From: an uncultured Chloroflexia bacterium
GTDB taxonomy: Bacteria; Chloroflexota; Limnocylindria; Limnocylindrales; CSP1-4
Length of the DNA: 64,000 nucleotides
Reading direction: 5' to 3'
Assembly (NCBI GenBank): GCA_963808895.1
Contig: CAWEHL010000004.1
Coordinates: 697,715-761,714, forward strand
Under the pieces are notes generated by a model. It had not been told where the DNA came from. It ran no database searches and saw only the letters and a program-made list of their open reading frames with translations. Positions 38,491 to 64,000 of the stretch are shown here, in pieces (the stretch's first letter is position 1; the number at the start of each line of letters is the position of its first letter). The position numbers were made by a program, and so were the translations under genes.

Positions 38491-39479
38491 CTAGGCGCGT
38501 GCCCCGAGGGCCGCTCGGACCGGGCCGGCGAGGGCCTCGAGCGTCGCGCGGTCGTATGGCGACGGAAGATCGAACATCACGGCGCTCGCCCCCGCGTCCC
38601 GATAGCCCGCAGGTCGAGCGATGACGGCCTCGGCCGTGTCGGTGAACGGCGACGCGAGTGCCGCTCGTTGGGCGGCGGCGCGGTCGACGGCGTGCCGCTC
38701 GAGGATGTCCGTCAACGCCTCGACCGCGGCATCCCGGCTCGCCCGGATCATCGGTGGTGGCAGGCCCACGGTCCGCTCGATCGCCGCGGGATCCCGCCCG
38801 ACGTCGCGGCAGTGGTCGTCGAGGATCGCGCTCCGCCGGGCGAACGACGCGGGCGAATCGCCATCGGCATTCCAGATGTCGGCGGCCTCCGCGACGATGC
38901 GGAGCGTCCGCTTCTCGCCGCTCCCCCCGATGACGAGCGGCAGCCGAGCCTGGACCGGCGGCGGGTCGTTCCGGGCCCCGTCGGCGGTGAACCAGGTCCC
39001 ATCGACCGTCACGGCCTCGCCGTCCAGCAGACCTGCGACAGATCGTGGCCGCCTCGGCGAATCGGTCGATCCGCTGGCCGAGCGAGCGGGAATGGCCACC
39101 CGAACGCGCGATGCTCCGGCTCGAACCAGCCCCCGCCGAGGCCGAGTGCCGCGCGCCCGCCCGTCGCGTGGTCGAGCGCCGTCGCCATCTTCACGAGCAG
39201 GCCCGGGTTCCGGTACCCGGCGCCGGAGACCAGGCAGCCCATCCGCGCCTGACTCGTACGCGCGGCCCAGCCGAACAGGATCGACCAGCCCTCGAACACC
39301 GGTCCCGCGAGCCCACCGTCCGCACCGTCCGTCCCGGCCGCGAGCGGCAGGAAATGGTCGTTGCTCCATAGCTCGTCGAATCCGAGCGCGTCGATGTCGG
39401 CGCCGATCGACATCAGCTCATCCCAGGTGACGTACTGGCCCCAGACCTGGAGGCCGACCCGAAGGCGAGGCTGGGCCAT
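38491..39479 (-). CDS. LLM-class flavin/F420-dependent oxidoreductase (frameshifted)
   Basis: WSNDHF, FEGWSIL, YRNPGLLVKMATALDHATGGRAALGLGGGWFEPEH, IGGSGEKRTLR. Confidence 0.88.
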
Positions 39480-39482
39480 GAC

Positions 39483-40545
39483 TCAGACCGCCGCAGGCTC
39501 GACGACGGCGCCCATCCGCGAGGAGGCGCTCGGCCGCCTCGAGCACGCGAAGGCCGCGGATCGCGTCGAGCGGGTCGACCGGCGGCGGGCTCCCGGTCCG
39601 CACCGCGTCCCGGAACAGCTCGTAGTAGCGCCGGTAATCGCCGGCTTCCGTCGGCACCGTGCGTGGTTCCTCGCCGACCATGTAGAGGCGCCCCCAATGC
39701 CCGGGCTCGTCGTCGCCGAAACCGGGATCCGACGGTCGCCTGCCGGCGAGGACGCGTGCCTCCTGGGGGTCGCGCTCGTCCTTGACGTACTCGCCGAGCA
39801 AGCCTCGGAGCCGGAAGCGCGGCCGGCCCCATGGGGAGATCAGCGACGTCCAGATGCGCGACCGTTCTCCGCCCGCGTGCTCGAGGGCGACGAAGGCCGA
39901 ATCGTCGACCGCAGTCCCGGGCCGGCGACGGTCGATCTGGGCGAAGACGCGGACCGGCTCACCGAACAGGAGCAGCGCCTGGTCGACCAGGTGCGCGCCG
40001 AGGTCACGATGCGGACCACCCGCCTCGTCCGCGTCCTCGCGCCACGCGTCGGCGAGCGGCGACGCCGATCTCGAAGCGCGACTCCATGCTGTCGATCGGC
40101 CCGAGCGTGCCCTCTCGCACGAGCGACCTGACGGTCAGGAAATCGCCGTCGAAGCGGCGGTTGTGATAGACCGACAGGACCTTTCCCGTCCGGTGCGCAG
40201 CGTCGACCAGCCGTTCCGCGTCGGCGATGCCGGTCGCGATCGGCTTGTCGACGACGACGTGGCGACCCGCCTCGAGTGCCCGGATGCCGAGCGGGACGTG
40301 GGTCCGATTCGGCGACGCGACCACGACGATCTCGACGTCGGCTCGGTCGAGCAGCTCGTCGAACGACTCCGACGACCGTCGCCTCCGGATGCTCCGCGGC
40401 GTGCATGCGCCTGCCGGTCGGGCCGCGAGGTGGCGATCGCCGCGACCCGGAGCCCGTCGACGGCTGCGATGAACGGCGCGTGGAAGGACCGTCCCGCCAG
40501 CCCGTAGCCGACGATGCCGACGCCGATCGATCCCGTCGAGGTCAT
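39483..40545 (-). CDS. Gfo/Idh/MocA oxidoreductase, IolW/YdgJ-like (frameshifted)
   Basis: VGYGLAGRSFHAPFI, HVVVDKP, VYHNRRFDGDF, DLGAHLVDQA, DPQE. Confidence 0.87.
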
Positions 40546-41798
40546 CGGTCGCCCTAGTTCCCGAGGTAGCGGCCCGGCCACCTCGCAGAACCGCTCGGCG
40601 ACGCGCTGGGCCGCCTCCGCGTCGTCGCGCATCCGCAGGCCCCACGGCGCGAGGTTGGTGTCGAAGATGCCGATGCCGATGCTCATCGACCGCGCGAGCA
40701 GCGCGTCGGTCTGGGGCAGCATCCCGGGCGCGTAGTCGCACGCCCTCGCTGCCGTAGCACGCGCAATCGAACGGGCAGCCCTGCCCGCTGACCGTCCGCT
40801 GCTCGATGAGGTGCTCCATGTTCGCGTAGACATGCCAGCCCGAGGCGGCGAGCGTGATCGAGCCGAGCTCGTCGGCCACGGCCTTCGCGATCTCCGGGGT
40901 CGGGAACGTGACGACGAGGTGCGTCGCGAGGTCGCCTTCGGGGTCGACGATGGTCCGGAAGCCGAGCCCCGGCAGGCCCGCGATCGTCGACTTGACGATC
41001 GCCTTGTTCTCTCGGAGGTGGTCGCGGATCAGGTCGAGCTTGCGGACCTGCGCCAGCAGCACCGCGCCCGACAGCTCGGTCATCCGGAAGTTCAGCCCGA
41101 GGAACGGCCGCTCGGCGTACTTCGATCCGAGGCGGTTCGGCGCGTGGCCCTGATCGTGGATCGCGAAGAATCGGCCGTACAGCTCCTCGTCGTCGGTGAC
41201 GATCATGCCGCCGTCGCCGCAGGTGATGGTCTTGTACTCGTTGAAGCTGTAGATGCCGGCCGTCCCGATCCCGCCGACGCCCTGCCCCTGGTACGTCGCA
41301 CCGAACGCCTGCGCGCAGTCCTCGATGAGCGCGATGCCGTGGCGATCGGCGATGTCCTTGAGCTCGTCGAGCCGCGCCGGCGCGCCGAGCATGTGGACGA
41401 CGAGGATGGCCTTGGTCCGCGGCGTGATGCGCGCCTCGACATCGGCCGGGTCGAGGTTGAACGAGTCGTCGACCTCGGCCAGGACCGGGATGCCACGGGC
41501 ATAGACGATCGCCGAGATCGAGGCGACGAACGTGAACCCGGGCACGATCACCTCATCGCCGGGCCCGACGCCGATCCCGAGCAGCGTCACGAACAGGCCA
41601 CTCGACCCACCGCCGTGCAGACCGAGGCCGTAGCGGACGCCGGCGAGCGACGCGATCTCCTGCTCGACCGTGCGGACCTTGGCGCCGAAGTTCGGGTCGG
41701 TCTCGCTGCCGTACCGGCTGAGCGCCCGGGCCTGTGAGGACCTGCATGACCTCGGCGATCTCTTCCTCGCCGATCAGCTCTACGCCGGGTCCGGGCAT
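40542..41798 (-). CDS. DegT/DnrJ/EryC1/StrS aminotransferase (frameshifted)
   Basis: GPGDEVIVPGFTFVAS, IEDCAQA, SFNEYKTITCGDGG, GLNFRMTE; GGAGG RBS. Confidence 0.9.
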
Positions 41799-41826
41799 GC
41801 CGGCCTCCCTCCGTCCGCGTGCCGTT

Positions 41827-41842
41827 GTGCAACCGATTGCAC
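41827..41842. promoter_or_regulatory. LacI-family operator in the divergent promoter
   Basis: Near-perfect palindrome GTGCAACCGATTGCAC with central CG. It overlaps the plus-strand -35 (TTGCAC-N18-TAATCT) and lies just downstream of the minus-strand TTGACG-N18-TACGGT. Confidence 0.8.
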
Positions 41843-41914
41843 GGCACCGTACCAGCACGATAATCTGACCGTCAACACGTCGAGCGCGGATGGAGTGAGG
41901 AGGGTCGGCAACAC

Positions 41915-42813
41915 GTGAGCGATCTCCTGGAGCGGGTGGCGGGCGCACCGATCACCTGGGGCGTCGACGGATCGCCCGGGTGGGGCTACCTGATGGATCG
42001 CGACCGCGTCCTGCGCGAGATGGTCGAGAGCGGGCTCAGCGCCACGGAGCTCGGACCCGACGGCTATCTCCCGACCGACCCGGGCGAGCTCAAGGAGTTC
42101 CTCGACCGGTTCGACATGAGCATCGTCGGGGGCTTCGTTCCGGCGCTGCTCTACCGCGACGACCGCATCGACGATCAGCTGGCCTACGTGACCCGCGCCG
42201 CGCGGCAGCTCGCGTCGACCGGCTCGAAGGTGCTCGTCCTCGGGCCGTCCTCCGCGAACCCCGGCTACGACACCCCGGTCGACATGTCGGACGACGAGTG
42301 GGCGACATTCCTTGCGAACCTGCCCCGGCTCGAGGCGATCGTCAGCGATGCCGGCCTCGAGACGGCCCTGCACCCGCACTGGGGTCTGGCGATCGCGACG
42401 GGACGCGGACATCGACCGGCTGCTCGACGTCATCGGACGTCGGGCATCTGCCTGGACACCGGGCACGCCTACCTCGGAGGCGCGGATCCGGTCGCGGTCG
42501 CCAGGGCCGCCGGCGATCGCGTCCTCCATGTGCACCTCAAGGACGTCGACGCCGCGAAGGCGGAGCGCGTCCGGAGCGGCGAGGTCGCCGTTCCGCCAAG
42601 CGGTCCTCGACGGCCTGTTCGTCCCGCTGGGTAAGGGCGGGGTCGACATCGCCGGCGTCATCCAGGCGCTCGAGGACCAGGGGTATCGCGGCTGGTATGT
42701 ACTCGAGCAGGACGTATCGCTGAAGTCGGATCCGCCCGACGGCGAAGGGCCCGAAGGCCGACGCGATCGACAGCGTCGCCTTCCTGCGCGGCCTCGCGGT
42801 CGCTCGCGCGTGA
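41915..42813 (+). CDS. iolE: Inosose dehydratase IolE/MocC-like TIM-barrel enzyme (frameshifted)
   Basis: GAPITWG, TELGPDGY, LHPH, CLDTGH, HVHLKD, FVPLGKGGVD, VLEQD. Confidence 0.75.
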
Positions 42814-43747
42814 CGCAGTCGTCGCCGTCCGACGCGACCGCGACGCTCGTCCTGCCCGCTCGCGCTCAGCTCGGCGAGTGCCCGCTCTGGAGCCCGACCG
42901 AGGCGCGCCTGTACTGGGAGGACATCGACGGCCGGGCGGTCCATCGCTTCGACCCAGCGACGGGCATCGACGAGAGCCGCGCGGCGCCCGGGCGACCCGG
43001 GTCGCTGGCCCTGACCGCGCACCCCGGGCCGACTGCTCGTCGCGATGGAAGGCCGGCTCGGCGTTCCTCGACTTGGCGAGGGCGGCACCTGGACCGACTG
43101 GATCCAGCTCGAGCCGGAGGGGCGCGGCAATCGGCATGAATGACGGGCGCATGCGATCCGGCGGGCCGGTTCTGGGTCGGGACGATGTTCGACCGCCGCG
43201 GCCGAGAACCAGGCGACGCGGCTCGCTCTATCGCGTCGAGTCGGACGGCAGCGCGCGCGGTGATGCGCACGGACATCGGCGTTCCCAACGGCCTCGCGTT
43301 CTCGCCGGACGGCCGGACGATGTACTTCGCCGATACCCACCGCGACACGGTCTGGGCGTACGACTACGACGTCGACACCGGCGAGGCGACCAACGAGCGG
43401 GTGTTCCTCGACTTCGCGACCCTGCCCGGGCGGCCGGACGGCGCCTGCGTCGACGAGGACGGCGTGCTACTGGATCGCCTGCGTCTACGGATCGGCGGTG
43501 CTGCGCGTCACGCCGGACGGCGTGGTCGACCGGCGGATCGCTGTCCCGACGTTGAAGCCGACGATGCCGGCGTTCGGCGGCCCGACGCTCTCGACGCTGT
43601 TCATCACCAGCGATCGGCGGCGGCGGCTCACACCCGGCGGACCCGACAGCGACCCAGAGGCCGGCGGCCTCTTCGCGGTCGAGACCGGCATCCGCGGGCT
43701 GGCCGGAGCCGCGTCTTCGCCGGCGGTCCGCGGCCGTGACGGCATGA
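42810..43747 (+). CDS. SMP-30/gluconolactonase-family lactonase (frameshifted)
   Basis: LGECPLW, MNDG.CDPAGRFWVGTM, PNGLAFSPDG, GRPDGACVDEDG, PTMPAFGG. Confidence 0.88.
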
Positions 43748-44762
43748 TCGGCGCCTGCCCTCCCGCCGGTCTGGTTCGAGCGACCCGTGCTGCCCGAGCT
43801 CGTCGAGCGTCGTCGACGCGGCGTGCACGGTGCTCGGGCCCGGCAACGGACGACGGATCGCTACGCGGGCATCGAGGACGCCGTCGGCGCCGTCGCCGGC
43901 GCCTGCGCCGTACGACGGGCGCGGTCATGGATCGCGCGCCCGGGCTGCGGGTCATCGCCCGGACCGGGATCGGCTACGACGCGGTCGACGTCGCGGCCGC
44001 GACCGCGCGCGGGATCGCCGTCTGCAACACGCCGGACGGCCCGACGATCTCGACCGCCGAGCACGCCGTCACGCTGATGCTGATGGTCGCCAAGAAGGTG
44101 AAGGCCGCCGAGGCGGCGCTCGCGGACCGGGACGTCGGGCGGCTACTACGCTCGCCACGCCGGGATCGAGCTCGACGGCAAGGTCCTCGGCCTGGTCGGC
44201 TTCGGTCGGATCGCCCGGCGGGTGGCGCGCGATCGCCGAGGCGACTCGGGATGCGGGTCGCGACGTTCGATCCGTACCTGCGACGCCGACCGCCATCCCG
44301 CCGGGATCGCGCGCGTCGACGACCCTCGACGCGCTCCTCGCGCGACGCCGACGTCGTCTCGGTCCACGTCCCGTTGACCGACGCCTCGCGCGGCATGTTC
44401 GACGCCGGCCGGTTCGCGCGATGAAGCCCGGAGCGGTCTTCATCAACACGGCGCGCGGCGGGCTCGTCGACCAGGACGCGCTGCTCGCGGCCCTCGATGC
44501 CGGGCCAGCTCGTTCGGCGCCGGCCTGGACGTCACGACGCCCGAGCCGCTCCCGACCGATCACCCGCTGCTCGGCCGCGACGACGTCGTGGTCACGCCCG
44601 CACGTCGCGTCGGCGACCGCCGATGGCAAGGTGCGCATCCTCCGGGCGCGCGTTCGAGCAGGCGATGGCCGTCGTCGCAGGGCGAACGCCCGGAGCACCT
44701 CGTCAATCCCGAGGTCTGGGACCGCGTCGCCGGCGCGACCGCTGCAGGAGTGGCACACGTGA
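43744..44762 (+). CDS. D-isomer 2-hydroxyacid dehydrogenase (SerA-like, frameshifted)
   Basis: [52 protein letters not shown]. Confidence 0.88.
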
Positions 44763-45945
44763 CCGACGATCGGGATCGGCGTCATCGGGTTCGGCTGGAT
44801 GGGCCAGGCGCACTCGCGGGCCTACCGCGACATCCCCGTCTACTTCCCCGAGAGCGGCATCCGGCCGCGACTCGTCGCCGTCGCCGACAACGTCCCGGCG
44901 CGGGTCGAGCTCGCGACGCGAGAACTTCGGGTTCGAGACCGGCACGCTCGACTGGCGCGAGCTCATCGCCCGCGACGACATCGACGTCGTCGACATCACG
45001 GCGCCGAACGCGCTCCACCAGCGAGACTCGTCGAGGCGGCGGCGGCGGCCGGCAAGCACATCGCCTGCGAGAAGCCGGTCGGGATCTCGCCGGAGGCGAC
45101 CGGCGGCGATCGAGGCCGCGGCGCGCCGGCGCCGGGGTCATCAGCGGCTGCGGCTACAACTACCGCTGGGCGCCGCTCGTCCAGTACACGCGCCAGCTCA
45201 TCGCCGACGGCCGGCTCGGCGACCTGACCCACTACCGCGGCCGCTTCTTCTCGATGTACGGGCGCGACCGGCTCGGGCTGCTGTCGTGGCGCTTCCTGCA
45301 GGAGGAGGCCGGCTACGGCGTCACTGAGCGACATCATGTCGCACGCCATCGACATGGCCCAGTTCATGTGCGGACCGATCGCGCCGGGTCGTCGCCGTGA
45401 AGGAGACGTTCGTCCGCGAGCGGCCGCTGCCGGTCCCGGGCAGGGCACGCACTACGACCGCGGCAAGCCCGGCGACCCGACCGGCGCCGTGACCAACGAG
45501 GACTACGTCGGCGCGCTGGTCGAGTTCGAGAACGGGGTCGCGCGGCACGCTCGAGGCGCGACCGCTCGATCTTCGGGCCGCAGAGCTCGATGGCCTTCGA
45601 GCTGAACGGCTCGAAGGGCGCCGCCGTCGTGGGATCACGAACGGCTCAACCAGCTGCAGCCTGTACCTGCCCGAGGAGCAGCCGACCGACGGCTTCATCG
45701 AGGTCCTCGCCGGCGACGCGCTTCCCGAACCAGGGCAACATCGTGCCCGGCGGCGGCAACTCCGCTCGGGTACGAGGACATGAAACTGATCGAGGCGCTC
45801 GAGTTCCTGCGTTCGGTCGAGGCCGGCCGCCGCCACCGCCCGGACTTCGGCGACGCCGCTGGCCAACGCCTCGGTCGCGGCGGCGATGGTCCGCTCGTGG
45901 GCGTCCGGACGGCTGGGAGGACGTCACAGCCTCCGGATCGACTGA
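44759..45945 (+). CDS. Gfo/Idh/MocA oxidoreductase (frameshifted)
   Basis: [41 protein letters not shown]. Confidence 0.87.
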
Positions 45946-45956: not shown

Positions 45957-46723
45957 ATGCTGGAGAACCGGACCAAGGCGAAGCTCGCCGCCGGCGAGCC
46001 CGTCGTTCGGCTGCTTCGTCCGGACCGCCGAGCCGTCAGCTCATCGAGTACGTCGGCGATGCTCGGCTGGGACTTCCTCGTCTTCGACGCCGAGCACGGC
46101 ACGCTCCAGCCGCGCGAGGTCGAGGACCTGTGCCGGGCGATCGAGCCGCGCGGCACGACGCCGATGGTCCGCGTCACGACCAACGACGCGCCGACGATCC
46201 TGCGCTTCCTCGACACCGGCGCCCACGGCGTCCACGTCCCGTGGGTCAACAGCGCCGCCGAGGCCGAGCGCGCGGTCCGCTCCGTGAAGTACACGCCGCG
46301 CGGCGATCCGCGGGCTGGCCGGCAGCCGGGCGTCCGAGTGGGGCCTGCGCGAGCCGATCGGCGAGTACGTCCAGCGGGCGAACCGCGAGACGCTCGTCGT
46401 GATCCAGGTCGAGACGCAGGACGCGGTCGACGCGATCGACGACTACCTCGCGATCGACGGCGATCGACGTGCTGTTCCTCGGCCCGACCGACCTGTCGCA
46501 GTCGCTCGGCCATCCCGGCGACCTGCGCCATCCCGACGTCCTCGCGGCGATGGACCGCGTCGCCGACGCGGTCGTCGGCTCGGACAAGACCCTCGGGATC
46601 TACGCTGGCACCGTCGACATGACCAAGGAATGGCTGGACCGAGGCGCCCGCTACTTCACGACGTCGCTCGAGCCGTTCCTGCGCGACGGGATGCGCGCCC
46701 ACCTGCGCGACGTGCGAGGCTGA
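45957..46723 (+). CDS. HpcH/HpaI-family class II aldolase (frameshifted)
   Basis: DAEHG, LRFLDTGAHGVHVPWV, KYTPRG.RG, IQVET, FLGPTDLS. Confidence 0.88.
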
Positions 46724-46728: not shown

Positions 46729-48587
46729 ATGGACACGATCCGACTGACCACCGCCCAGGCCATCGTCCGCTGGCTGCTCGCGCAGCGGACCCGGATCGAC
46801 GGCGAGGAGGTCGCCGATCTTCGCCGGGGTGTTCGGCGATCTTCGGGCACGGCAACGTGACGTCGCTGGCCGAGGCGCTCGAGCCGGTGCAGGACCGGCT
46901 GCCGACGTGGCGCGGCCAGAACGAGCAGTCGATGGCGCTGGCCGCGCGTGGCCTACGCCAAGGCGATGCGCGGTCGGCGGATCATGATCGCGACCTCGTC
47001 GGTCGGGCCCGGGCTCGACCAACATGGTGACGGCCGCCGCCGTCGCCCACGCCAACCGGCTGCCCGTCCTGCTGATGTCCGGCGACACGTTCCAGCACCG
47101 GATCGTCGACCCCGTCCTCCAGCAGGTCGAGCACTTCGGCGACCCGACGATCACGGTCGCGGACACGTTCAAGCCGGTCAGCCGCTACTGGGATCGCATC
47201 ACCAAGCCCGCCCAGATCGTGCAGTCGCTCCCGCAGGCACTGGCGACGATGCTCGATCCGGCGACCCGCGGCCCGGCGTTCTTCGCCCTGCCGCAGGACG
47301 TCCAGGCCGAGGCGTACGACTTACCCGACGCGGTTCTTCGAGCCGCGCGAGCACTACATCCGCCGGCCCGGGCCGGATCCACGCGACGTCGAGCGCGGCG
47401 GCGGACCTCATCGGCCGGGCGCAAGCGCCCGATGCTCATCGCCGGTGGCGGCGTCCACTACGCGGATGCGACGTCGAACGGTCCGGGCCTTCGCCGAACG
47501 CCACGCGCATCCCGGTCGTCGAGACGGTGGCCGGCAAGGCGACGCTGACCCACGACCACCCGAACTACGCCGGCCCGATCGGGGTCACCGGCTCGCGCGC
47601 CGCTAACGCCGTCGCCGAGCAGGCCGACGTCGTCATCGCCGTCGGGACGCGGCTGCAGGACTTCACGACCGGCTCGTGGTCGGTGTTCCAGCGATCCGGA
47701 CGTGCGGTTCGTCGGCATCAACACCGCGTCGTGGGACGCCCACAAGCAGGGCGCCCTCGCCGGTCATCGGCGACGCGAAGGTGACGCTCGAGGCGATCGA
47801 TGCCGCCCTCGGCGACTACACGGCCGCCGCCCGAGTGGCTGGCGATGGCCGACGAGCGCATCGCCGAGTGGCACGCCTATCTCGACTCGTGGTCGGGGCG
47901 GACAGCACGACGGCCCGCCCGCCTACGCCGAGGTGATCCAGGCGATCAACGCCGTCGCGCGATCCGGCGGACTACATCCTGTCCGCCGCCGGCGGCCTGC
48001 CCGGCGAGCTGAGCATGGGCTGGCGGTCGAAGTCGGTCGGCTCGTTCGACTCGGAGTACGGCTACTCGACGATGGGCTACGAGATCGCCGGCGCGTGGGG
48101 CGCCCGGCTCGCGCGGCCGACCGGCGACGTCATCGCCTGGGTCGGCGACGGCTCGTACCTGATGATGAACTCGGACATCTACTCGACCGTGATGACCGGC
48201 CAGAAGGTCATCTTCATGGTCTGCGACAACGGCGGCTACGCCGTCATCAACCGCCTCCAGGTCAACACCGGCGGCGCCGAGTTCAACAACCTCCTCTCGA
48301 CGACCCGCCACGAGCGCTACTTCCAGGTCGACTTCGTCAAGCACGCCGAGGCGATGGGCGCGATCGCCGAGCGCGTCGAGTCGCGTCGCCGACCTGCCGG
48401 CGGCGTTCGCGCGTGCCAAGGCGGCGGACCGGAGCTACGTGATCGTCGTCCCGGTCGACCAGTACACCTGGACCGAGGGCGGCGCGTGGTGGGAGGTCGG
48501 CGTGCCCGAGGTCAGCGAGCGGCCAGCGGTCCGGCCGCCCGCGAGGCGTGGGAGGACGCCAAGCAGCACCAGCGCGTCGGCGTCTAG
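46729..48587 (+). CDS. iolD: ThDP-dependent trihydroxycyclohexane-dione hydrolase IolD (frameshifted)
   Basis: IRLTTAQAIVRWL, IFGHGNV, GQNEQSMA, DPVLQQVEH, GTRLQDFTTGS, EYGYSTMGYE, VGDGSYLMM, WWEVGVPEV. Confidence 0.93.
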
Positions 48588-52104: not shown

Positions 52105-52151
52105 TTGACCCTCCGTCGTCGGTATGCTAGCGTCCGCGCAACCGATTGCAC
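52105..52151 (+). promoter_or_regulatory. Promoter TTGACC-N17-TAGCGT (extended TG) followed by a second LacI operator
   Basis: -35 at 52105-52110, -10 at 52128-52133; GCAACCGATTGCAC at 52138-52151 is identical to 41829-41842. Confidence 0.78.
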
Positions 52152-54560: not shown

Positions 54561-55696
54561 CCGTGCTTCGATCAGATCAGCTGTCACGGCGACGGTTCCT
54601 GCAGGTGACCGGCGCCGTCGGCGCGACCGTCGGCGCTCGGCGGCGTCTCCGGCCGCCTGCAACGTCATCGGTCGGCGGCGCCGCCAGGGCGGGCACGTTC
54701 AACTGGATGACGTGGAGCGACCACTACATCGACACCCAGCTGACAAGGCCATCGAGGACTCCGACAAGATCATCGCCCGCGATCAGCGAGCTCGCGGGCA
54801 ACGCCGAGGGCTACGCCAAGCTCAAGGAGGTCAAGGGCCAGCTCGACAAGATGTCGGGCGACGCCCTGTGGGTGCCCGAACGCCTACTAGCCAAGGACGG
54901 CCTCATCGAGCCGTTCGACATCAACGAGCTGAAGGTCTCGTCGCAGCTCTATTCGTTCGCCCGCGAGTTCCCGTATCTGGACGAAGCCCGAGGGCTACCT
55001 GGCTACCCGTTCGGCTGGTCCCCGATCATGCATCTATTACGACCCGGCCAAGGTCAGCGGCGGCCCGACCGCTGGCAGGTCCTGCTCGACCCGAAGTACA
55101 AGGGCCGCATCGTCGTCGAGAACCAGCCCGAGGAGATCGTCGCGTACATGGCCCGCGCGGCCGGCTTCGACAACGCCGTACGACCTGACCGACGACCAGC
55201 TCGCGACCGTCAAGGGCTACCTCGAGAAGCTCAAGCCGAACGTCCTGAAGTTCGCCCAGCAGGCGACCGACAGCGTCAACTGCGATGGTCAGCGGCGAGG
55301 CCTGGCTGATCACCGGCAACCTCGGCAACGAGGACCGGGTCAAGGACGGCGGCGGGCCGGAGATCAAGGGCTATCGTCCCGAAGGAAGGCACCGTCGGCT
55401 GGCACGGACGCCGAGATGATCGTCAAGGAGGGCGCCAACAAGGCGCTCATCAAGCCGTTCCTCGAGAAGTCGCAGCAGGCCGAGAACATCGCCGAGAACT
55501 TCCTCGCCAACGGCCGCCCGCTCTTCAACGAGAAGGCCTACAAGCTCCTCGTCGACCAGGGCAAGCAGGACCAGGCCGACCGCTACCTCTACAGCAAGGC
55601 CGAGGACGATGCTCGCCGAAGACGGTCCTCAAGGGCCCGGGCACGTCGACCGACAAGTCGATCCAGCTCTTCAACGAGGTCTTCGGCGGAGGCTGA
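54557..55696 (+). CDS. Tat-exported PotD-like substrate-binding (lipo)protein (frameshifted)
   Basis: SRRRFL twin-arginine motif, probable AAC lipobox, FNWMTWSDHY, W..LLDPKYKGRI, PKEGTVGW. Confidence 0.8.
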
Positions 55697-55705: not shown

Positions 55706-56633
55706 ATGACGGCCGAAGTGGTCACCGGGGTCGAAGCGGCCCCGGTCGGCCGTCGATCTCCCGCGGTCGCTCTGCGCGGCTGCGGCAGCTCGCGCCGTTC
55801 CTCCCGGCGGCGCTGCTGCTCGCGGATCCTGTTCTTCGTGCCCCTCGCGGTGATGTTCGTCTTCTCGCTGTGGACGACGAACGCGAACCTCGACATCGTC
55901 CCGGTCTGGAACCTGGACAACTACGCGCAGTTCTTCAACGAGCCGCGACGTACGTCCGGACGCTCGCTGCAAGACCGTGATCATCGGGCGCCGCGGTGAC
56001 GGCGATCTGCCTCGTCATCGCGTTCGCGGTCGCGTACTTCCTCGCCCGCTACGTCTCGCGACGGTGGGCGCGGCTCGCCCTGCTCGTCATCATCGTCCCG
56101 TTCTGGTCGAGCTACCTGCTGCGCGTCTACTCGTGGCAGGCGATCCTCGGCGAGAAGGGCGCGCTCAACCAGCTGCTGATGGGCCTCGGGACTCATCGCC
56201 GAGCCGTCGCGGCTGTTCGTCTACAACGACATCGGGACGTTCATCGTCCTGACCTACGTCTACATGCCGTTCGCGATCCTGGTCCTGTACGCGTCGCTCG
56301 AGCGATTCGACTTCACGCAGCTGACCGCGGCCCAGGACCTCGGCGCGAGCCCGTCCGGGCGTTCCGCCACATCCTGCTGCCCCAGATCCGGCCCGGCCTC
56401 ATCACGGCGTGCGATCTTCGTCTTCATCCCGATCCTCGGCGAGTTCCTGACGCCGTCGATGGTCGGCGGCGCGTCGGGATTGCTGATCGCCAACCTGATC
56501 CAGACGTTCTTCAAGAACGCGCTCGTCCCCGCAGGGCGCCGCGCTCGGATTCCTGATCGTGGCGTTCGTCACCGTGCTGCTGATCGTGTTCCGCAAGTAC
56601 CTGCGCGTCGAGGACGTGTACGCCCGTGGCTAA
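55706..56633 (+). CDS. ABC permease, PotB-like (frameshifted)
   Basis: LDNY, PFWSSYLLRVYSW, GALNQLL, YMPFAILVLYASL, AAQDLGAS. Confidence 0.87.
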
Positions 56634-57504
56634 GAGCGTCGATCCGCTCGAGACGATGCCGGTCAGCCGGTACGCCGGGCTGACCCGCTGGGGCCTGCGG
56701 GTGGTGTTCGCGCTCCTGGTCCTGTTCCTCTACCTGCCGATCGTCTTCATGGTCGGCGTTCTCGTTCGACGAATCGTCGACGCCGGGCCTGCCGATCCAG
56801 GGACCGACGCTCCACTGGTACGACGTCATGATCCACAACCGCCAGCTCCTGACGGCGGTCGGCAACACCGTGAGCGTGTCGCTCATCGTCTCCGATCCTG
56901 GCGACGATCATCGGGACGATGGCGGCCTTCGTCCTCGTCCGCGGGCGGCTCCGCTTCCCGAACGGCATCCGCATCGTCTTCACGCTGCCGATCATGGTCC
57001 CGGGCGTCCTGATCGGCGATCGCCCTGCTGGTCTTCTTCTCGCGCGCGCTGTCCACGCGAACCTGTCGCTGATGACCGTCATCGCCGGGCAGCTCGTCGT
57101 CACGGTCCCGTTCGTCGTCCTGATCGTCGCCTCGCGCCTGCAGAGCTTCGATCGGAAGCTCGAATGGGCGGCGGCCGACCTCGGCGCCTCGCCGCGACGG
57201 ACGCTCCGGCACGTCGTGCTGCCGCTGATCGCGCCGGCGATCCTGGCCGGCGCGCTGATCTGCATCACGCTCTCGATCGACGAGTTCGTCATCACCTGGT
57301 TCACGGTCGGCAACCAGCCGACGCTGCCGACCTACATCTACACGAAGGTCAAGTTCGGCGTGACGCCCGAGGTCAACGCGGTCGGCACGGTGATGCTCGT
57401 CGCGACGCTGCTGATCTTCGGGCATCGCCGGGCTGGCGCTCGGTCGGTCGCGCCGCTCGCCTGCCGCGCCGCCGCGCCGCCCCGCCTGCATGAGCCGCGC
57501 CTGA
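56626..57504 (+). CDS. ABC permease, PotC-like (frameshifted)
   Basis: FLYLPI, TLHWY, AAADLGASP, LSIDEFV, TLP, GVTPEVNA. Confidence 0.88.
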
Positions 57505-58516
57505 TGCGCGCCGCCGTCTTCAAGGGCGAGGGCGTCGTCGAGCTCGAGGACGTCCCGGAGCCCAGGGTCGAGGCCGATGACGACGTCGTCATCGAGGTCG
57601 AGGCGTGCGGGATCTGCGGCACCGACCTGCAGATCCTCAACGTGCCGCCGGGCCACCCGGCCGACGCCGGCGTCGTGATGGGCCACGAGTTCATCGGCCG
57701 GGTCAGCGCGCGTCGGCGCGAACGCGGCGTGGCGCTCGCGATCGGTCAGCGGGTGACGGTCGATCCCGATCCGAAGTGCGGCGTGTGTGGTCCGTGCCGC
57801 GCCGGCCGGCCGGCGAGCTGCGAGAACGTCCGTGCGCTCGGCATCTTCCGGGACGGCGCGCTTGCGCGCGAAGGTCAAGGCACCGGCCGACGCCGTGTTC
57901 CCGCTGTCCGACGCCCCGTCAGCCCGGATCGCCGCGCTGATCGAACCGCTCGCGTGCGTCGTGAACGGCGTGAACAAGGCGAACCCGCGGCCCGGCGAGT
58001 CGGCGATCATCTTCGGGGCCGGCGCGATCGGCTGCCTGTTCCTCGCGATGTTCAAGGCTGCAGGCGCCGGGCCGGTGATCGTGGTCGAGCCGCAGGCCGA
58101 TCGCGGGGCGGTCGCCACGGCCGTCGGAGCGGATGTCGTCGTCGGCCCGAACGACCTCGAGGCGCGCCGTCGGGAGCTGCTCCCCTACGGCGCCGACGTC
58201 GTCGTCGACGCGGTCGGCAGCCAGTTCGGTGCCGCCGTCGAGCACGCCGCGCTCGGCGGGCGGATCGTGCTCTTCGGGCAGAACCAGACAGGCGCGCCCG
58301 CCGATCCACCAGTACACGATCACCGAACGCTCGCTGACGGTCCTCGGGTCGTACGTGACGGCGTTCACGTTCCCGACAGCGATCCGGCTGGTCGAGAACG
58401 GAGCGCTGAACCTCGAACCGATCGTGACCCACGTGCTGCCGCTCGACCGGCTGACCGAGGGCCTCGATCTGCTCCGTTCCGGCGCGGCGACCAAGGTCGT
58501 CGTCACGCCCGCCTGA
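57504..58516 (+). CDS. Zn-dependent medium-chain (polyol/cyclitol) dehydrogenase (frameshifted)
   Basis: CGICGTD, GHE, CGVCGPCRAGRPASC, EPLAC, GAGAIG. Confidence 0.9.
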
Positions 58517-58538: not shown

Positions 58539-59474
58539 ATGGAGCTCGGCCTCTATACCGACTCGCTGCCCGACCATGCCTTCGAGGAGGCGCTCGACGT
58601 GGCCGCGCGCGTCGGCGCGACCGGCGATCGAGATCGCGACCGGCGGCCAGTCACGGGCCCCGCATCTGCGGCTCGACGAGCTGCTCGGCGACGCGGCTCG
58701 GCGCGCCGCGTTCCGTGACGCGTTCTCCAGCCGAGGCCTGCGGATCGCGGCGCTCAACTGCTCGGCCTGGCCGCTCCACCCGGCCGTCGGCGAGCGGCAC
58801 GTGGCGATCATCCGCTCGACGATCCGGCTGGCCGCCGAGCTCGGCGTCACGCAAGCTCGTCACGATGTCCGGCAATCCGGGGGACGGTCCGACGGGCACG
58901 GCCGTCAACTTCGTCTGGTACCCATGGCCGGAGGAGTCGATGGCGCTCCTCGAGCGCCAGTGGGACGAGGCGATCGACGCTGTGGCAGGACCTCGGCGAC
59001 GGAAGCGAAGGCCGCAGGCATCGAGACGCTCGCGTTCGAGCTGCATCCGCTCCATCTCGTCTACAACGTGCCGACCTACGAGCGGATGCGCGACGCGGTC
59101 GGGCCGATCATCGGCGTGAACCTCGATCCGTCGCACCTCTTCTGGCAGGGCATGGATCCGCTGGCCGTGGTCCGGGCCCTCGGCCCGGCGATACGCCACG
59201 TCCACCTGAAGGACACCGAGATCGTGGCCGACCAGGTCGCCATCGCGGGCGTCCTCGACGCAGCGCCCGTTCGCCGACCCGACGCGCCGGGGCTGGGTCT
59301 TCCGGACGGCCGGCGCGATCCACGACCGGGCGTGGTGGACGGCGTTCGTCGACGCGCTGCGGGAGGTCGGCTACGACGACGCGTTGTCGATCGAGAACGA
59401 GGACGCGGGGCTGCCGCCCGAGGCCTCGGTCGAGCGGCGCCGCCGCATTCATGCAGCCGATCATCCGCGGGTAG
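58539..59474 (+). CDS. Xylose-isomerase-like TIM-barrel enzyme (IolH-like sugar epimerase/dehydratase/lyase, frameshifted)
   Basis: IEIATGGQS, ALNCS.WPLHP, FELHP, NLDPSHLFWQGMDP, HVHLKD, W.FRT, SIENED. Confidence 0.85.
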
Positions 59475-59502: not shown

Positions 59503-60881
59503 TCAGTCGGGCGCGGCCAGCTCGGCGCGATGCGCGACGAGGAACTCGCTCGTCGCCGCGACCAATCGATCGACGTCGTCCTCGGTGTGCGCGCCGGTGA
59601 GGAAGCCACGGATCATGTAGTGCGGGTGGACGTAGATCCCGCGCTCGAGCAGCCAGCCACGGTACGCGCGCTGGATGGGGTGGTCCTTGTCCATCGCGAA
59701 TCGCGCGAAGTCGCGGAACTTGCGGATCGGCGTGTCCGTGAAGTACACGGTCCAGACGCCCGCCATCTCGCGGACCTGGACGCGGGCTCCGGTCGCATCG
59801 ATGGCCGCCTGGATGCCGTCGGTGAGGCGCCGCCCGAGGGTCGCGAGGTGCTGGTGGATCGCGCGCTCCTGGACGATGCCGGTGACCTCCAGCGCCACCG
59901 CGACATCGAGGGTGTGGCCGGCGAACGTGCCGGCGAACAGGACGTCGCCCTTCGGCCCGAGCCGGTCCATGATGTCGCCTCGTCCGCACAGGACCGAGAT
60001 CGGGAAGCCATTGGCGATGGCTTTGCCGAGCGTCGTCAGGTCCGGGCGTGACGCCGAAGCGCTCCTGCGCCCCACCCGGGCGCGTGCCGGAAGCCCGGTG
60101 ATGATCTCGTCGAAGATGAGGAGGGTGCCTGCCTCGGTGCACGCCTCCCGGAGCGTCTCGAGGAACCCCGGGTCCGGCAGCACCACACCGGCGTTGTGGA
60201 AAACGGGCTCCAGGATGACCGCGGCGATCGTGTCGCCCTCGCGACGCAACGTCTCGCGCACACCCTCGGCGTCGTTGTACTCGCGGACGACGACGAGGTC
60301 CCGGACGGCCGCCGGGATGCCCGCCGACGCCGCGACCGGAGTCGGCTCGCCGTCGTCCTCGGTCGCGAAGTGGTGGCTCCACGCGACGTAGTCGTGCCAG
60401 CCGTGGTAGTTGCCCTCGAACTTGAGGATGCGCTCGCGGCCGGTGAACGCCCGCGCGAGCCGGATGGCATGGAACGTCGCCTCGGTCCCGGTGCACGCTG
60501 AACACGACCCGGTCGGCCGACGGGATCATCTCGACGAGCCGCTCAGCAAGCTCGACCTCGAGCGGGTTCGCGGTGGAGAACGACACGCCGTGCTCGTCCA
60601 TCGCGCGACGTGCAGCGGCGTTCATCGCGCGGGTCGTTATGTCCGAGCAGGACGGCGCCGAACGACGAGTGGAAGTCGACGTACTCGTTGCCGTCGACGT
60701 CGCGGATGCGTGACCCCTGCGCCTGGGTCATGAACAGCGGGTATGGCCGCGCACCCCTTCCCTCGCCCTGGACGCCGCCGGGCGACACACGACTGGCACG
60801 CTCATGCAGCGCCGCGGAGGCATCGGTCGGGATCGGCCACTCGAGCGCGTCCCGCTCGGGGCGGCGGTCGAGCGTCGTCAT
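59503..60881 (-). CDS. Class III aminotransferase, HemL/GSA-aminomutase-like (frameshifted)
   Basis: YVDFHSSFGAVLLGH, KFEGNYHGWHD, LIFDEIITG, TLGKAIANGFPI, AGTFAGH. Confidence 0.87.
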
Positions 60882-62101
60882 GCCGTGACCGCTCGTGGCG
60901 CGGCGGCCACCGGGATCGTCGACCGGGGTCCGGGCCCCGGTCGCCGCTGACGCATAGAGCGCATCGATGACCGCGCTGTCGCGGACACCGTCCTCGAAGT
61001 CGGCGTGGGCCCCACGACCCTCGTGGATGGCCGTCAGGAACTCGGCCCACATCGCGCACACCTGGCCGATCCAGCCGACCGACGTCCCGTCCGCGCCGCC
61101 GACGAGCAGCTCGGCCGCGCCGGGGTGCTGGGCGTTCACCAGGACCCGCCGATAGCCGAGCGTCGCCTCGTCGCTCGGGAGACAGACCTGGAACTCGTTG
61201 CCGCGCTCGAGCTCCCACCTCGCGGACCCGACCGTCCCGAACACCTCGACCTCCATCGCCACGCGCCGACCGGGCGTCACCCGGCTCGTCTCGAGGACCC
61301 CGTATGCCCCGTTCTCGAACGTGACGATCGCCGCGGCCGCGTCCTCGACGTCGACCGCGCCCATCGCCACCGCCCGGTCGCTGCCGCCCGGGCCGCCGCC
61401 GCGGTTGCCGATCGCATCCGCACCCGGCAAGGGCCGTTCCGGGTAGGCGATCGCCGTCAGTCCCTGGACGGTCTCGACCTCGCCGACCAGGTATCGGGCG
61501 GTATCGACGAGGTGGTAGCCGGTATCGATGGCGATGCCTCCGCCGGCGAGCGCCTTCTGGAATCGCCACAGGAGCGGCACATCGGGATCGGCGGCGTAGT
61601 CGAGCAGGAACGACGCCCGGAAGCTACGGACCTCGCCGAGCTCACCGCGCTCGATGAGCTCGCGGATCGCCCGGATCGCCGGCGTCCAGCGATATGCCGC
61701 TCCCAGCCCGTGGAACACACCCGCCGCCCGGCAGGCGGCCAGCAGTTCGGCCCCCGCCTCGGCGTCCGTCGCCAGCGGCTTCTCGCTCACGACGTGCTTG
61801 CCCGCTGCGGCCGCGCCGAGCACGACCTCACGGTTGTACGCCGGCGGCAGGCACGTGACGACGAGGTCGACGTCGGGCGCGTCCACGAGCGCACGCCAGT
61901 CCGCCGTCCACGCGCGCGTAGCCGTAGCGCTCGGCGAGGCGGGACGCCAGCCGGTCGTTGACGTCGGCGACGGACGACGAGTCGCGGTCGGATCGGCAGA
62001 TCGGCATACAGGGGCGCCAGCATCGATAGCGCGAGGCTGTGGGCACCGGCCATCGTCCCCGCGCCGACCATGCCGATGCCGAGCTCGCGCGCGGCGGTCA
62101 T
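60878..62101 (-). CDS. Gfo/Idh/MocA oxidoreductase (frameshifted)
   Basis: MVGAGTMAGAH, VSEKP, LWRFQK, DTGYHLVD, VDVED. Confidence 0.88.
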
Positions 62102-63232
62102 GCCGGGACGTCGCTGGCGCCGACCGACGCCGCCATCTCGTCGAGTCGTCACGCGGCGCTGCTCCGTCGCGGCCGTGATGACCGCGTCGCACATCAGCGC
62201 CGCCTGGTAGCCGTCCTCGAAGCTTGCCTGCTCGACGGCGGAGCGGCGGTCGTCGATGACCGCGGTCAGGAAGTCGCGCCACTCGTGGGCGAAGCTGTGC
62301 TCCCAGCCCACGGTGTGACCCGGCGGCCACCACATGTCCATGAACGGATGCTCCGGCTGGCTGACGAGGATGTCGCGGAAGCCGCCGGTCCCATCGGCCT
62401 CGTCAGCCGCGTAGAACACGTGGAGGCGGTTGAGGTCCTCCATGTCCCACCACAGCGATCCTTCGGTCCCGTTGAACTCGATGCCCTGGCGGCCCTTCCA
62501 GCCCCACGCCACCCGCGATGCCTCGAGCGAGGCGATACCGCCGCCGCGCAGCTCGACGGCCGCGACGTAGGCGTCCTCGAGATCGACCCCGATATCAGCA
62601 GGGGTCAGCTTGGCCGCCACCGCCTGGACCGCCTCCGCCTCGTTCCCGAGGTAGCGCATGAAGTCGATGATGTGGCAGTAGTCGGTGATGGCACGCGACA
62701 CGTTGGGCTTCCGGCTCGGGCACGGTCGCCGGCGGCATGGTCCTGGAGATAGACCGCCCGGAACTGCAGGCACCGTCCGAGCCGGCCGCTGTACGACGAT
62801 GTCGCGCGCCAGCCGCATCGCCGGCATGTACCGATAGTTGAACCCGACCGCGGCGTGGACCCCGGCTCGCCGCGCGGCATCGAGCATCGCCGCCGCCTCG
62901 AAGCGGTCGCGTCCGAGCGGCTTCTCGCACAGCACGGGCTTGCCGAGGGCCAGCGCCGCGTCGGTCGCCTCGAGGTGGGCGGTCTCGCCGAGCAGGACCG
63001 CGATGACGTCGATGTCCGGGTCGTCGACGACCTCGCGCCAATCGGTCGTGAACCGCTCGATACCGAGGTCGCGGGCCATCGCCGCCCCGCGATCGGGGTT
63101 GCGTGCGGCGAGCGCCGCCAGCTCGATCGGGCGCGCCAGCGGGGTCACGTGGTTGAGCGTGTGCAGCGCGTGCCCGTGCGCTCGGGTGATCCAGCCCGCG
63201 CCGAGGAGGCCGATGCGGATCGGGTCGGACAT
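62098..63232 (-). CDS. Gfo/Idh/MocA oxidoreductase (frameshifted)
   Basis: LLGAGWITRAH, LCEKP, GFNYRY, DYCHIID, WWPPGHTVGWEHSF. Confidence 0.88.
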
Positions 63233-63240
63233 CGTCGGGC

Positions 63241-64000
63241 TCAGGCGGGCACGGGCGGCGGGGTCGCCGCCTCGCCGAGGAATCGCTCCGGGTCGCCCAT
63301 CACGGCGCGGATCGTCTCCGCGTAGCGTTCGATCAGCTCGGTCGACTGGAGGAAGATCGGGTAGCGCGCCTCGCAGATGACCAGGGACGAATCGAGCATC
63401 GCGTTCGCCTCCGGGTAGTCGGCGGGGTCGTATCCGCGCTCCTGGAAGACCGGGAACGCCGGTGCCGGCTGGGTATGCCAGAGCTCGCACCCGACGCCTG
63501 CCGCGAGCAGCGTCTGCCCGAGCGCATCGCGGAACACCGTCGGCGGGACGTGACCGAGACCCATCGCGGACGGGTCCAGCCGCACCCGGTAGTGGTAATA
63601 GGACGAGGTGCGGTCGTTCGGGACGTACGGCGGCGTCATCCCCGGAAGCCCGCCGAGCGCCTCGTCGAGGATCGCCGCGTTCTGCTGGCCGGTGGCGATG
63701 TACTGGGGCAACCGCTGGAGCTGCGAGCGAGCCAGCGCGGCCGGCATCTCCTGATGGCGGTAGTTCCAGCCGATCGAATAGCCCGTGTATGGCCGGAAGT
63801 CCCAGCCCGTCAGCTTGCCGAGCTCCGGGATGTCCTCACCGAAGGTCCGCAGCCGGCGCGCGCGGGCGAGGATGTCGGGATCGTCCGCGACGAGGAGACC
63901 GCCCTCCCCGCCGGACAGGATCTTGCTCGAGTTCAGGCTGTAGCAGCCGATGAGCCCGATCGAGCCGACCTGGCGGCCGTGATACGTCGCGCCGTGGGCC
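63241..64000 (-). CDS. DegT/DnrJ/EryC1/StrS aminotransferase (5' part outside the window)
   Basis: AHGATYHG, YSLNSSKILSGGEGG, GWNYRHQEMPAALARSQL. Confidence 0.9.
   Translation of the reverse strand, partial: AHGATYHGRQVGSIGLIGCYSLNSSKILSGGEGGLLVADDPDILARARRLRTFGEDIPELGKLTGWDFRPYTGYSIGWNYRHQEMPAALARSQLQRLPQYIATGQQNAAILDEALGGLPGMTPPYVPNDRTSSYYHYRVRLDPSAMGLGHVPPTVFRDALGQTLLAAGVGCELWHTQPAPAFPVFQERGYDPADYPEANAMLDSSLVICEARYPIFLQSTELIERYAETIRAVMGDPERFLGEAATPPPVPA

Follow-up and report, generated by a model that had tools for sequence, protein, structure and literature searches.

A putative catabolic regulon joining inositol ring-cleavage genes to aminotransferases in an uncultured Limnocylindrales-type Chloroflexota bacterium

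This study concerns a 64,000-nucleotide stretch of DNA (hereafter the window) from an uncultured Chloroflexia bacterium, taken from genome G000 (G000:C4:697715-761714; 3.54 Mb, 71% GC, 8 contigs, completeness 71%). Named homologs of one window protein come from 'Candidatus Limnocylindrales' and from metagenome-assembled genomes (MAGs) of Chloroflexota. A gene cluster that starts at 38.5 kb and runs past the right end of the window to about 74 kb (window coordinates) interleaves the inositol ring-cleavage genes IolD and IolB with two DegT aminotransferases, a HemL-like class-III aminotransferase and a Pot-type importer. Their arrangement lends good genomic support to reading the cluster as a catabolic extension of the inositol pathway that is linked to amines.

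The genes were placed in the window by frame-tolerant mapping (tblastn) of intact orthologs from G006, L012 and L013, families were assigned on these orthologs with Pfam and NCBIfam, and the functional annotation was based on the intact orthologs of G006, L012, L013 and G272. G006, a congener of G000 that is 93% complete and has clean gene models g01-g40, served as the reference for annotation; its locus is collinear with the window at 79% nucleotide identity. The features of the cluster inside the window are as follows, with model scores given in bits against the cutoff of the model.

38500..39464, minus strand: F420-type luciferase-like (LLM) oxidoreductase, g10 ortholog, in three frame pieces (tblastn 66-87% identity; Pfam Bac_luciferase; TIGR03560 228.4 vs cutoff 231.4)
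39499..40527, minus strand: Gfo/Idh/MocA oxidoreductase g11 (nearest NCBIfam PRK11579, 259.5 vs 330)
40570..41783, minus strand: DegT aminotransferase, g12 type, with a frame switch at ~40735 (Pfam DegT 266.7 bits for the ortholog, 234.9 bits for the window ORF)
41829..41840, no strand: LacI-type operator copy 1, GCAACCGATTGC, in the divergent g12-g13 promoter
41915..42798, plus strand: IolE-like xylose-isomerase-type TIM barrel g13 (Pfam AP_endonuc_2; TIGR04379 170.7 vs 290)
42831..43728, plus strand: SMP-30/gluconolactonase family g14 (ortholog mapping, Pfam)
43748..44725, plus strand: D-2-hydroxyacid dehydrogenase g15 (ortholog mapping, Pfam, NCBIfam)
44766..45942, plus strand: Gfo/Idh/MocA oxidoreductase g16 (nearest model levoglucosan dehydrogenase, 287 vs 650)
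45957..46720, plus strand: HpcH/HpaI-family class II aldolase g17 (ortholog mapping, Pfam, NCBIfam)
46729..48584, plus strand: IolD (3D-(3,5/4)-trihydroxycyclohexane-1,2-dione hydrolase) g18, frame-broken (ortholog passes TIGR04377, 840.6 vs 715)
48596..49383, plus strand: short-chain dehydrogenase (SDR) g19 (ortholog mapping, Pfam)
49433..51943, minus strand: 859-aa CehA/McbA-family metallohydrolase-like g20 (NF038032 domain 150.1 vs 80)
52138..52149, no strand: LacI-type operator copy 2, GCAACCGATTGC, in the divergent g20-g21 promoter
52316..53322, plus strand: LacI-family regulator g21, which opens the importer operon
53400..54550, plus strand: PotA-type ABC ATPase with TOBE_2 domain g22 (TIGR01187 365.5 vs 355.6)
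54584..55693, plus strand: SBP_bac_6 solute-binding protein g23, a remote PotD relative (weak match to a twin-arginine (TAT) signal, 20.3 bits, under Pfam's 22.7 cutoff)
55706..57422, plus strand: two BPD_transp_1 permeases g24, g25 (ortholog mapping, Pfam)
57504..58510, plus strand: Zn-dependent medium-chain dehydrogenase (not in G006; in L012, L013, L126, L014, L216)
58539..59449, plus strand: second xylose-isomerase-type TIM barrel (Pfam AP_endonuc_2; no NCBIfam match)
59527..60839, minus strand: HemL-like class-III aminotransferase g26, not true HemL (NF000818 400 vs 398)
60912..62101, minus strand: Gfo/Idh/MocA oxidoreductase (not in G006; in L013)
62144..63232, minus strand: Gfo/Idh/MocA oxidoreductase g27 (ortholog mapping, Pfam, NCBIfam)
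63274..64000, minus strand: DegT aminotransferase, g28 type, which runs on to about 64500 and is preceded on that strand by IolB and a TAL-like gene

Past 64 kb the annotated genes, among which there is no cyclase, encode IolB, TAL-like, IolG-like and IolE-like proteins, a LacI regulator and a sugar ABC transporter, followed by a weak PfkB kinase and then YchF. A preliminary description of the window, made from its letters alone, had listed a set of families at 38.5-64 kb, all of which are present there by ortholog mapping with Pfam and NCBIfam. Its gene list was incomplete, as it had missed seven genes (LLM, SMP-30, D-2-hydroxyacid dehydrogenase, HpcH, SDR, CehA/McbA-like and LacI) as well as the frame breaks treated below.

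The genes form five same-strand strings of closely spaced genes together with single genes, and the word operon is used here on the ground of spacing alone. String A, on the minus strand, holds the g12 DegT, the Gfo/Idh/MocA enzyme g11 and the LLM oxidoreductase g10. String B, on the plus strand, runs from the IolE-like gene through SMP-30, D-2-hydroxyacid dehydrogenase, Gfo/Idh/MocA and HpcH aldolase to IolD and SDR, and the g20 metallohydrolase stands as a single minus-strand gene between strings B and C. String C (plus) consists of LacI, the PotA-type ATPase, the SBP_bac_6 protein and two permeases, followed by the Zn-dehydrogenase and the second TIM barrel in G000, L012 and L013 and by the Zn-dehydrogenase in L126 (G272). 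String D (minus) comprises the TAL/FSA-like gene, IolB, the g28 DegT, Gfo/Idh/MocA (present twice in G000 and in L013) and the class-III aminotransferase, and string E (plus) carries a second IolE-like gene (G000, L012), an IolG-like dehydrogenase, a sugar-type ABC transporter and the second LacI. The gaps inside the strings measure -4 to 18 bp, except for 76 bp between IolB and DegT28, two genes that belong to the same closely packed string in four species.

The palindrome GCAACCGATTGC occurs exactly twice in the window (41829 and 52138) and twice in 46.8 kb of G006, and in both genomes its two sites are the g12-g13 and g20-g21 divergent promoters. At ≤1 mismatch, 0.23 matches would be expected by chance, and at least two matches turned up in 2 of 100 shuffled sequences. 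In L012 the same sequence stands at the start of the LacI-importer operon, and similar palindromes precede DegT12 in L126 (G272), the IolB operon of the cassette described below and the DegT in L137. As a putative operator, GCAACCGATTGC ties the importer, DegT12 and IolD operons to one regulator. A second operator, GTAATCGATTAC, is found at the TAL-IolG divergent promoter in G000, G006 and L012. Based on the placement of the two operators, there appear to be two regulons, each of which mixes iol genes with aminotransferase genes. Since the locus is collinear with that of G006 and the operators are conserved, the cluster is evidently no chance grouping.

The window copies of these genes have to be read with care. 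Nearly all genes at 38.5-59.5 kb are split into two to six frame pieces when G006 proteins are mapped on the window, and a codon-usage model revealed frequent frame switching, with short pieces in alternating frames at 38.5-59.5 kb and clean long genes in other parts of the window; gene calling by GC content at third codon positions only had failed and was discarded. Pfam identified raw open reading frames (ORFs) of the window as chimeras, which join DegT to a Gfo tail, an SMP-30 tail to the 2-hydroxyacid dehydrogenase, a TOBE domain to the TAT signal and binding protein, and a permease to ADH_N, and 10 of 20 long window ORFs searched directly had no Pfam match. The genes are intact in G006, L012, L013 and L126. 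Contigs from four short-read soil and rhizosphere runs omit single bases (or one or two) at 96 places in 40000-49999, among them 40371, 40394, 40571 and 40737, the last being the frame switch of g12, where three of the four runs have the omission. These runs (soil and rhizosphere metagenomes, sharing 0.10-0.13 of sampled words) were used for indels alone, and not for habitat or strain. In comparison with G006, non-triplet indels at 40-56 kb number 15-33 extra against 1-11 missing per 2 kb, while the bins at 62-66 kb are balanced (7 vs 6 and 10 vs 11). All nine of the extra bases examined are G or C. Past 59.5 kb and past the window end, most G000 genes are intact.

Because the relatives are intact, the short-read contigs omit the bases and the indel excess is biased toward insertions, the frame breaks are read as insertion-biased consensus or assembly errors (~1% inserted bases) rather than as decay. 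A truly decayed, pseudogenised cluster at 38.5-59.5 kb of G000 is very improbable. It would fit the breaks being far denser there than at 59.5-72 kb and in parts of 4-34 kb, and also the position of the inserted bases outside homopolymers, where a homopolymer test was negative and the errors are hence not of the homopolymer type; moreover, the overlaid contigs come from related populations that are 90-99% alike to the window and not provably the same strain. However, the in-frame pieces are still 82-93% identical to G006 in amino acids, the excess consists almost purely of single-base insertions without large deletions, collinearity is full, both operators are kept exactly, and completeness of 71% in 8 contigs is typical of a long-read assembly rich in errors. 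Frame switching is also dense at window positions 1-4000 and 15000-21700, showing that error-rich patches extend outside the cluster. The chimeric raw ORFs that such insertion errors produce in this assembly are a warning for its use.

The IolD of G006 passes the equivalog cutoff of TIGR04377 and its IolB that of TIGR04378 (276.5 vs 205), and both genes are single copy in G000, where IolB lies at about 64.6-65.4 kb and the frame-broken IolD of the window fails the TIGR04377 cutoff by itself. The two IolE-like paralogs remain under the TIGR04379 equivalog cutoff (170.7 and 169.4 vs 290), as does the IolG-like g31 under that of TIGR04380 (291.7 vs 355). No IolC equivalog (TIGR04382) scores over its cutoff in G000, G006 or G272, the best value being 201.3 vs 300 and that of the PfkB protein of the locus 40.1. 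Among the locus genes there is no match to PF01116, the family of the IolJ-type class-II aldolase, which has one copy per genome elsewhere. IolA/MmsA (TIGR01722) is likewise present outside the locus in G000, G006 and G272, with 737 bits at G000:C3.

Two further gene families accompany the ring-cleavage genes. The TAL/FSA-family protein (L009:9920-11071, g30 of G006; G000:C4 763171-764307, ~65.5-66.6 kb) is divergent, with 84.6 vs 367 for the transaldolase model and 58 bits for the best match in the PDB. Its gene adjoins IolB or IolD in G000, G006 and L012, and a TAL/FSA-like gene also stands beside IolB/IolD in five of 40 surveyed IolD loci (L099, L100, L110, L119 and L122; these five belong to other genera), making the protein a candidate for a non-canonical last step of inositol catabolism. 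In L033, L101, L112, L126 and L127, which represent several Chloroflexota lineages, IolD recurs beside an HpcH-family aldolase, often together with a D-2-hydroxyacid dehydrogenase and an SDR. The association of HpcH with IolD may represent an alternative lower branch from 5-deoxyglucuronate.

Concerning the aminotransferases, bit scores against PDB sequences served as a coarse stand-in for a phylogeny with aminocyclitol enzymes. The nearest relative of g12 is 5k8b (257 bits), KdnA, by its molecule name an 8-amino-Kdo transaminase, which acts on a non-nucleotide substrate. The nearest relative of g28 is 8gyh (259 bits). In the text available from PMC11726168, 8GYJ is Fic25, an aminotransferase of the ficellomycin pathway whose substrate is not a nucleotide sugar. 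KdnA and Fic25 are the nearest solved DegT relatives, but they are biosynthetic and their gene contexts are unrelated, so that the similarity is of the family level and not orthologous. Both DegT proteins stay under all equivalog cutoffs for enzymes of nucleoside-diphosphate (NDP) sugars, such as PseC, ArnB, WecE and DesI (best 181.7 vs 420 for g12, 212 vs 423.5 for g28), and no grouping with NDP-sugar enzymes beside transferase genes, which would have spoken against the proposal of the preliminary description, was observed. An invariant lysine in an S-x-x-x-K stretch, presumably the lysine that binds pyridoxal phosphate, is K184 in the g12 type (set A2) and K193 in the g28 type (set A1). A tree of 156 DegT sequences separates the g12 clade (support 1.0) from the g28 clade (support 0.997) and places the IolD-linked DegT proteins of L147 and L033 outside both; the link between IolD and DegT therefore seems to have arisen with at least four DegT lineages.

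The class-III aminotransferase g26 passes the subfamily model NF000818 (400 vs 398), fails TIGR00713 hemL (384.7 vs 527.3) and is also close to the GntE model. The preliminary description had likened the enzymes of this cluster to those of aminoglycoside producers, and this analogy found no support: g26 scores 305 bits with HemL against 149 bits with a C-6' aminotransferase, the DegT proteins score roughly alike with 2-deoxy-scyllo-inosose aminotransferases and with NDP-sugar enzymes (140-195 bits), and the Zn-dehydrogenase is nearest to the IolM model and to threonine dehydrogenases. A plasmid search with the cassette DegT returned 307 records, all below 60% identity. Two plasmid contexts that were inspected (Roseibium and Rhizobium sp. 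SL42) are biosynthetic and uninformative, with relatives of the g12-type DegT at ≤44% identity.

The importer combines a PotA-type ATPase that passes the TIGR01187 subfamily model with two BPD_transp_1 permeases and the binding protein g23, which matches PotD weakly (36.3 vs 582 for the model; 43 bits for the solved PotD). Five of seven PotD positions that we take to be ligand-binding residues are kept in the alignment, namely W34, E36 (as D), E171, W255 and D257, while D168 and W229 are not; three of the five kept positions are acidic. The nearest NCBIfam model of the Zn-dehydrogenase is IolM, scyllo-inosose 3-dehydrogenase, far under its cutoff (194.9 vs 450), and its PDB neighbours are an uncharacterised Zn-dehydrogenase and threonine dehydrogenases. 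Among curated models, the Gfo/Idh/MocA enzymes come closest to dehydrogenases that form 3-keto-sugars (levoglucosan dehydrogenase model, 222-292 bits).

Accessory redox genes vary among close relatives: the Zn-dehydrogenase, the second TIM barrel and one Gfo/Idh/MocA paralog are absent from G006 and present in G000 and L013, L012 has the first two, and L126 has the Zn-dehydrogenase. The metallohydrolase g20 (L010:3176-5755 in G006) lies within the operator-1 regulon and is a member of an extensive family of ~860-aa proteins whose protein-atlas clusters are unnamed or auto-named CehA/McbA; it has no Pfam match and no PDB relative. G001 carries two g20 paralogs near its g12-type DegT and IolD. 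To the left, the cluster is bounded by a DNA-repair pair, a YprA/MrfA-type helicase (34786-37087, 772.6 bits to 6znp, frame-broken once in G000) and after it an MrfB-type exonuclease (about 37100-38464, 117 bits to 8un9).

Related clusters stand in G006, L012, L013, L147, L033 and, as a compact cassette, in G272, a congener of G000. The iol genes of this paralogous 13.5-kb cassette on G272:C65 (L125 + L133, 17.9 kb) are IolD (922.8 vs 715, with 45% identity to g18), IolB (278.9 vs 205) and an IolE-like gene; it also carries a split transketolase, LacI, a g12-type DegT (60%), a class-III aminotransferase (40%) and a Pot-type importer of four genes (47-60%). The cassette is flanked by an IS481-like transposase gene and, at its other end, by IS21 IstA/IstB, which suggests that the module is mobile. 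Among its annotated genes there is no IolG, sugar transporter, Gfo/Idh/MocA enzyme or second TIM barrel, and inosose coming from transamination rather than dehydrogenation would be the simplest feed for its IolE, IolD and IolB. Elsewhere, L147 has IolD (55%) and then LacI-DegT-...-PotA; in L033, a locus of a Caldilineaceae MAG, DegT and a glycosidase of family GH4 occur with 2HADH-HpcH-SDR-IolD (843 vs 715)-IolE-like; and in L012 the TAL-IolB-DegT string abuts the importer operon. From the shared operator, the tight strings, the cassette and the recurrent neighbourhoods of IolD and DegT, we infer that the amine and ring-cleavage genes work together.

The locus resembles canonical myo-inositol catabolism of the Bacillus subtilis iolABCDEFGHIJ type in having a true IolD and IolB, IolE-like and IolG-like proteins, a sugar ABC importer, a repressor and IolA elsewhere. 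It differs in that its strings, with their shared operator, also contain three aminotransferases (two DegT, one class-III), a Zn-dehydrogenase, LLM, a Pot-type importer and extra Gfo enzymes; no IolC equivalog was found, and the locus has a TAL-like protein and an HpcH aldolase instead of an IolJ-type aldolase. The rhizopine moc system (mocRABCDEF) of Sinorhizobium meliloti L5-30 is, in the text available from two sources, the single system described in which an aminocyclitol is channelled into the inositol pathway; it comprises the Gfo/Idh/MocA-family MocA, the essential MocC, whose function is called unknown, the binding protein MocB, used along with the inositol transporter IntBC, the MocR regulator of GntR/aminotransferase fold and mocDEF, and the same text describes neither an aminotransferase among the moc catabolic genes nor the deamination step of rhizopine (PMC6668481, PMC10107442). 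A Gfo/Idh/MocA-family enzyme is common to both systems; unlike moc, the present locus has a Pot-type importer, LacI regulators, three aminotransferases and no Rieske/ferredoxin gene, in a comparison by domain family. We take MocC to be IolE-like, and a ferredoxin oxygenase complex is reportedly linked to rhizopine catabolism, judging by the title of a 1998 paper.

The enzymes of aminocyclitol biosynthesis (BtrR/NeoB-type, MosB and the C-6' class-III enzyme) belong to the same superfamilies as those of the locus without specific grouping, and the gene context here is catabolic. The DegT-type MosB interconverts scyllo-inosose and scyllo-inosamine with glutamate, according to the text available from PMC6668481. 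Our literature searches found no paper linking inosamine with IolD and no account of ring catabolism of aminoglycoside-type aminocyclitols, and the part of a recent review that could be consulted (PMC12904256, J Nat Prod 2026) gives none either.

Taking the evidence together, we consider it an even call whether the cluster is a soil Limnocylindrales-type regulon that extends inositol ring cleavage to amine-bearing cyclitols. The idea of the preliminary description that amines feed ring cleavage gains from the common operator, from the string of IolB, DegT, Gfo and aminotransferase and from the IolG-less cassette. Several observations weigh against it. The genes of G000 are not readable as intact ORFs, IolE and IolG are only -like, and nothing so far explains why two to three aminotransferases would be needed. 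None of the locus enzymes groups specifically with enzymes of aminoglycoside pathways, and no similarity among them singles out an aminocyclitol substrate; for the DegT proteins, 2-deoxy-scyllo-inosose aminotransferases (140-181 bits) score about equal to perosamine synthase, ArnB and WbpE (130-189 bits). L014 has LacI-ZnDH-Pot importer-aminotransferase-DegT with no iol gene within about 10 kb. In G350 (95% complete; L216 = G350:C21), a DegT28-like protein, LLM, Pot importer, Zn-dehydrogenase, IolE-like, IolG-like and LacI are present, and no IolD over the cutoff was found despite this amine module.

The surveys point in the same direction. IolD occurs in 60 of 301 Chloroflexota genomes, a tally that includes the unpublished G222. 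When 40 IolD loci from 38 Chloroflexota genomes were inspected, a DegT within ~9 kb was seen only at L125 and L126, both of G272; the other 38 loci, 37 of them from other genera, had no DegT with the queries used. The IolD-DegT link thus is, as far as these genomes tell, rare and in part inherited synteny. Conversely, DegT stands without a nearby iol or Pot gene at 75 of 80 genome loci in the g28 scan and at most of 80 metagenome loci in the g12 scan, and a phyletic test of g28 against IolD over 61 family genomes yielded three orthologs, a number too small to be telling, one of which, in G350, runs counter to the link.

A rival reading is an ordinary myo-/scyllo-inositol locus interleaved with an independent amine module for a non-cyclitol substrate (an amino sugar, amino-polyol or polyamine-like compound), whose products would bypass IolD. 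This explanation appears rather unlikely. In its favour, the sugar ABC transporter, IolG-like protein, LacI and PfkB just past the window are as in other Chloroflexota iol loci, the amine module lacks IolD in L014 and G350, DegT was not found at 38 of 40 surveyed IolD loci, and pairs of a class-III aminotransferase and a Zn-dehydrogenase are known from amino-polyol chemistry. Against it, the importer, DegT12 and IolD operons share an operator, IolB and DegT28 stand in one tight string in four species, and the IS-bracketed cassette packs iol and amine genes together without IolG or a sugar transporter. Quite improbable, in our estimate, is the catabolism of an amino-glycoside of inositol or of another amine-bearing glycoside (e.g. 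of glucosaminyl-inositol type), in which Gfo enzymes and TIM barrels would carry out an oxidative cleavage, the amino-sugar half would go to the aminotransferases and only the freed inositol would enter IolG-IolE-IolD-IolB. The four to five Gfo/Idh/MocA enzymes, with 3-keto-sugar-forming dehydrogenases as their nearest models, and three TIM barrels would suit such chemistry, as would the joining of DegT and IolD with a GH4 oxidative glycosidase in L033, the membership of the large metallohydrolase g20 in the regulon and the presence of both amine-type and sugar-type importers; but Pfam finds no glycoside hydrolase among the annotated genes of the G000/G006 locus, the dehydrogenase matches are all far under their cutoffs, and the minimal cassette does without Gfo/Idh/MocA and the second TIM barrel.

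A biosynthetic cluster for an aminocyclitol natural product is extremely unlikely. DegT, Gfo/Idh/MocA and Zn-dehydrogenase are indeed the enzyme set of inosamine and 2-deoxystreptamine formation, and the distant g12-type relatives on plasmids lie in biosynthetic clusters. However, the annotated set of g10-g36, g38, g39 and the G000-only genes contains no cyclase, glycosyltransferase, nucleotidyltransferase or exporter (g37 has no Pfam match, and g09 and g40 are unscanned), nor is there a sugar-phosphate cyclase (2-deoxy-scyllo-inosose synthase, EEVS or MIPS) or a resistance gene among the annotated locus genes. In their place are a true IolD and IolB, two binding-protein-dependent importers and two LacI regulators. 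The preliminary description was therefore right in seeing no cyclase or glycosyltransferase and in calling the system catabolic rather than biosynthetic.

For the extension of ring cleavage to amine-bearing cyclitols, we propose the following scheme, in which the substrate class, all reaction directions and the order of the steps are inferred from gene identities, order, spacing, operators and conservation. The PotABCD-like ABC importer would take up a cationic amino-cyclitol, an inosamine or a diamino-cyclitol, and the two DegT and the HemL-like class-III aminotransferases would turn its C-NH2 groups into C=O. The Gfo/Idh/MocA enzymes and the Zn-dehydrogenase may then shuffle keto and hydroxyl groups to yield inosose, which the IolE-like dehydratase, IolD and IolB would open and isomerise. 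Cleavage of the product would be non-canonical, by the TAL/FSA-like protein encoded next to IolB, by the HpcH aldolase and 2-hydroxyacid dehydrogenase next to IolD or, in the cassette, by the split transketolase, and malonate semialdehyde would go to IolA, whose gene lies outside the locus. Each of the two LacI regulators would act through an operator of its own to control one of the two gene sets that mix iol and aminotransferase genes.

A more specific version, namely a dedicated aminocyclitol route with import, deamination by DegT and HemL-like enzymes, ring use by IolE/IolD/IolB and transaldolase- or transketolase-type cleavage, encoded both by the chromosomal regulon and by the cassette, is doubtful; its substrates would be rhizopine-like inosamines and possibly streptamine or 2-deoxystreptamine cores. 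The specific aminoglycoside reading is equally speculative.

The intact sequences of G006, L012 and G272 offer enzymes, a binding protein and a repressor/operator pair with which these predictions can be tested. If the extension to amine-bearing cyclitols is true, it would constitute an unrecognised entry into the inositol pathway by transamination instead of dehydrogenation, and an unrecognised lower branch in which a TAL-like, HpcH or transketolase enzyme replaces IolC and IolJ. Should the dedicated route hold, it would be the first aminocyclitol catabolic pathway initiated by aminotransferases and would suggest a natural soil sink for aminoglycoside residues. More generally, the extension would explain how uncultured, abundant soil Chloroflexota may use amine-bearing cyclitols as a carbon and nitrogen source.

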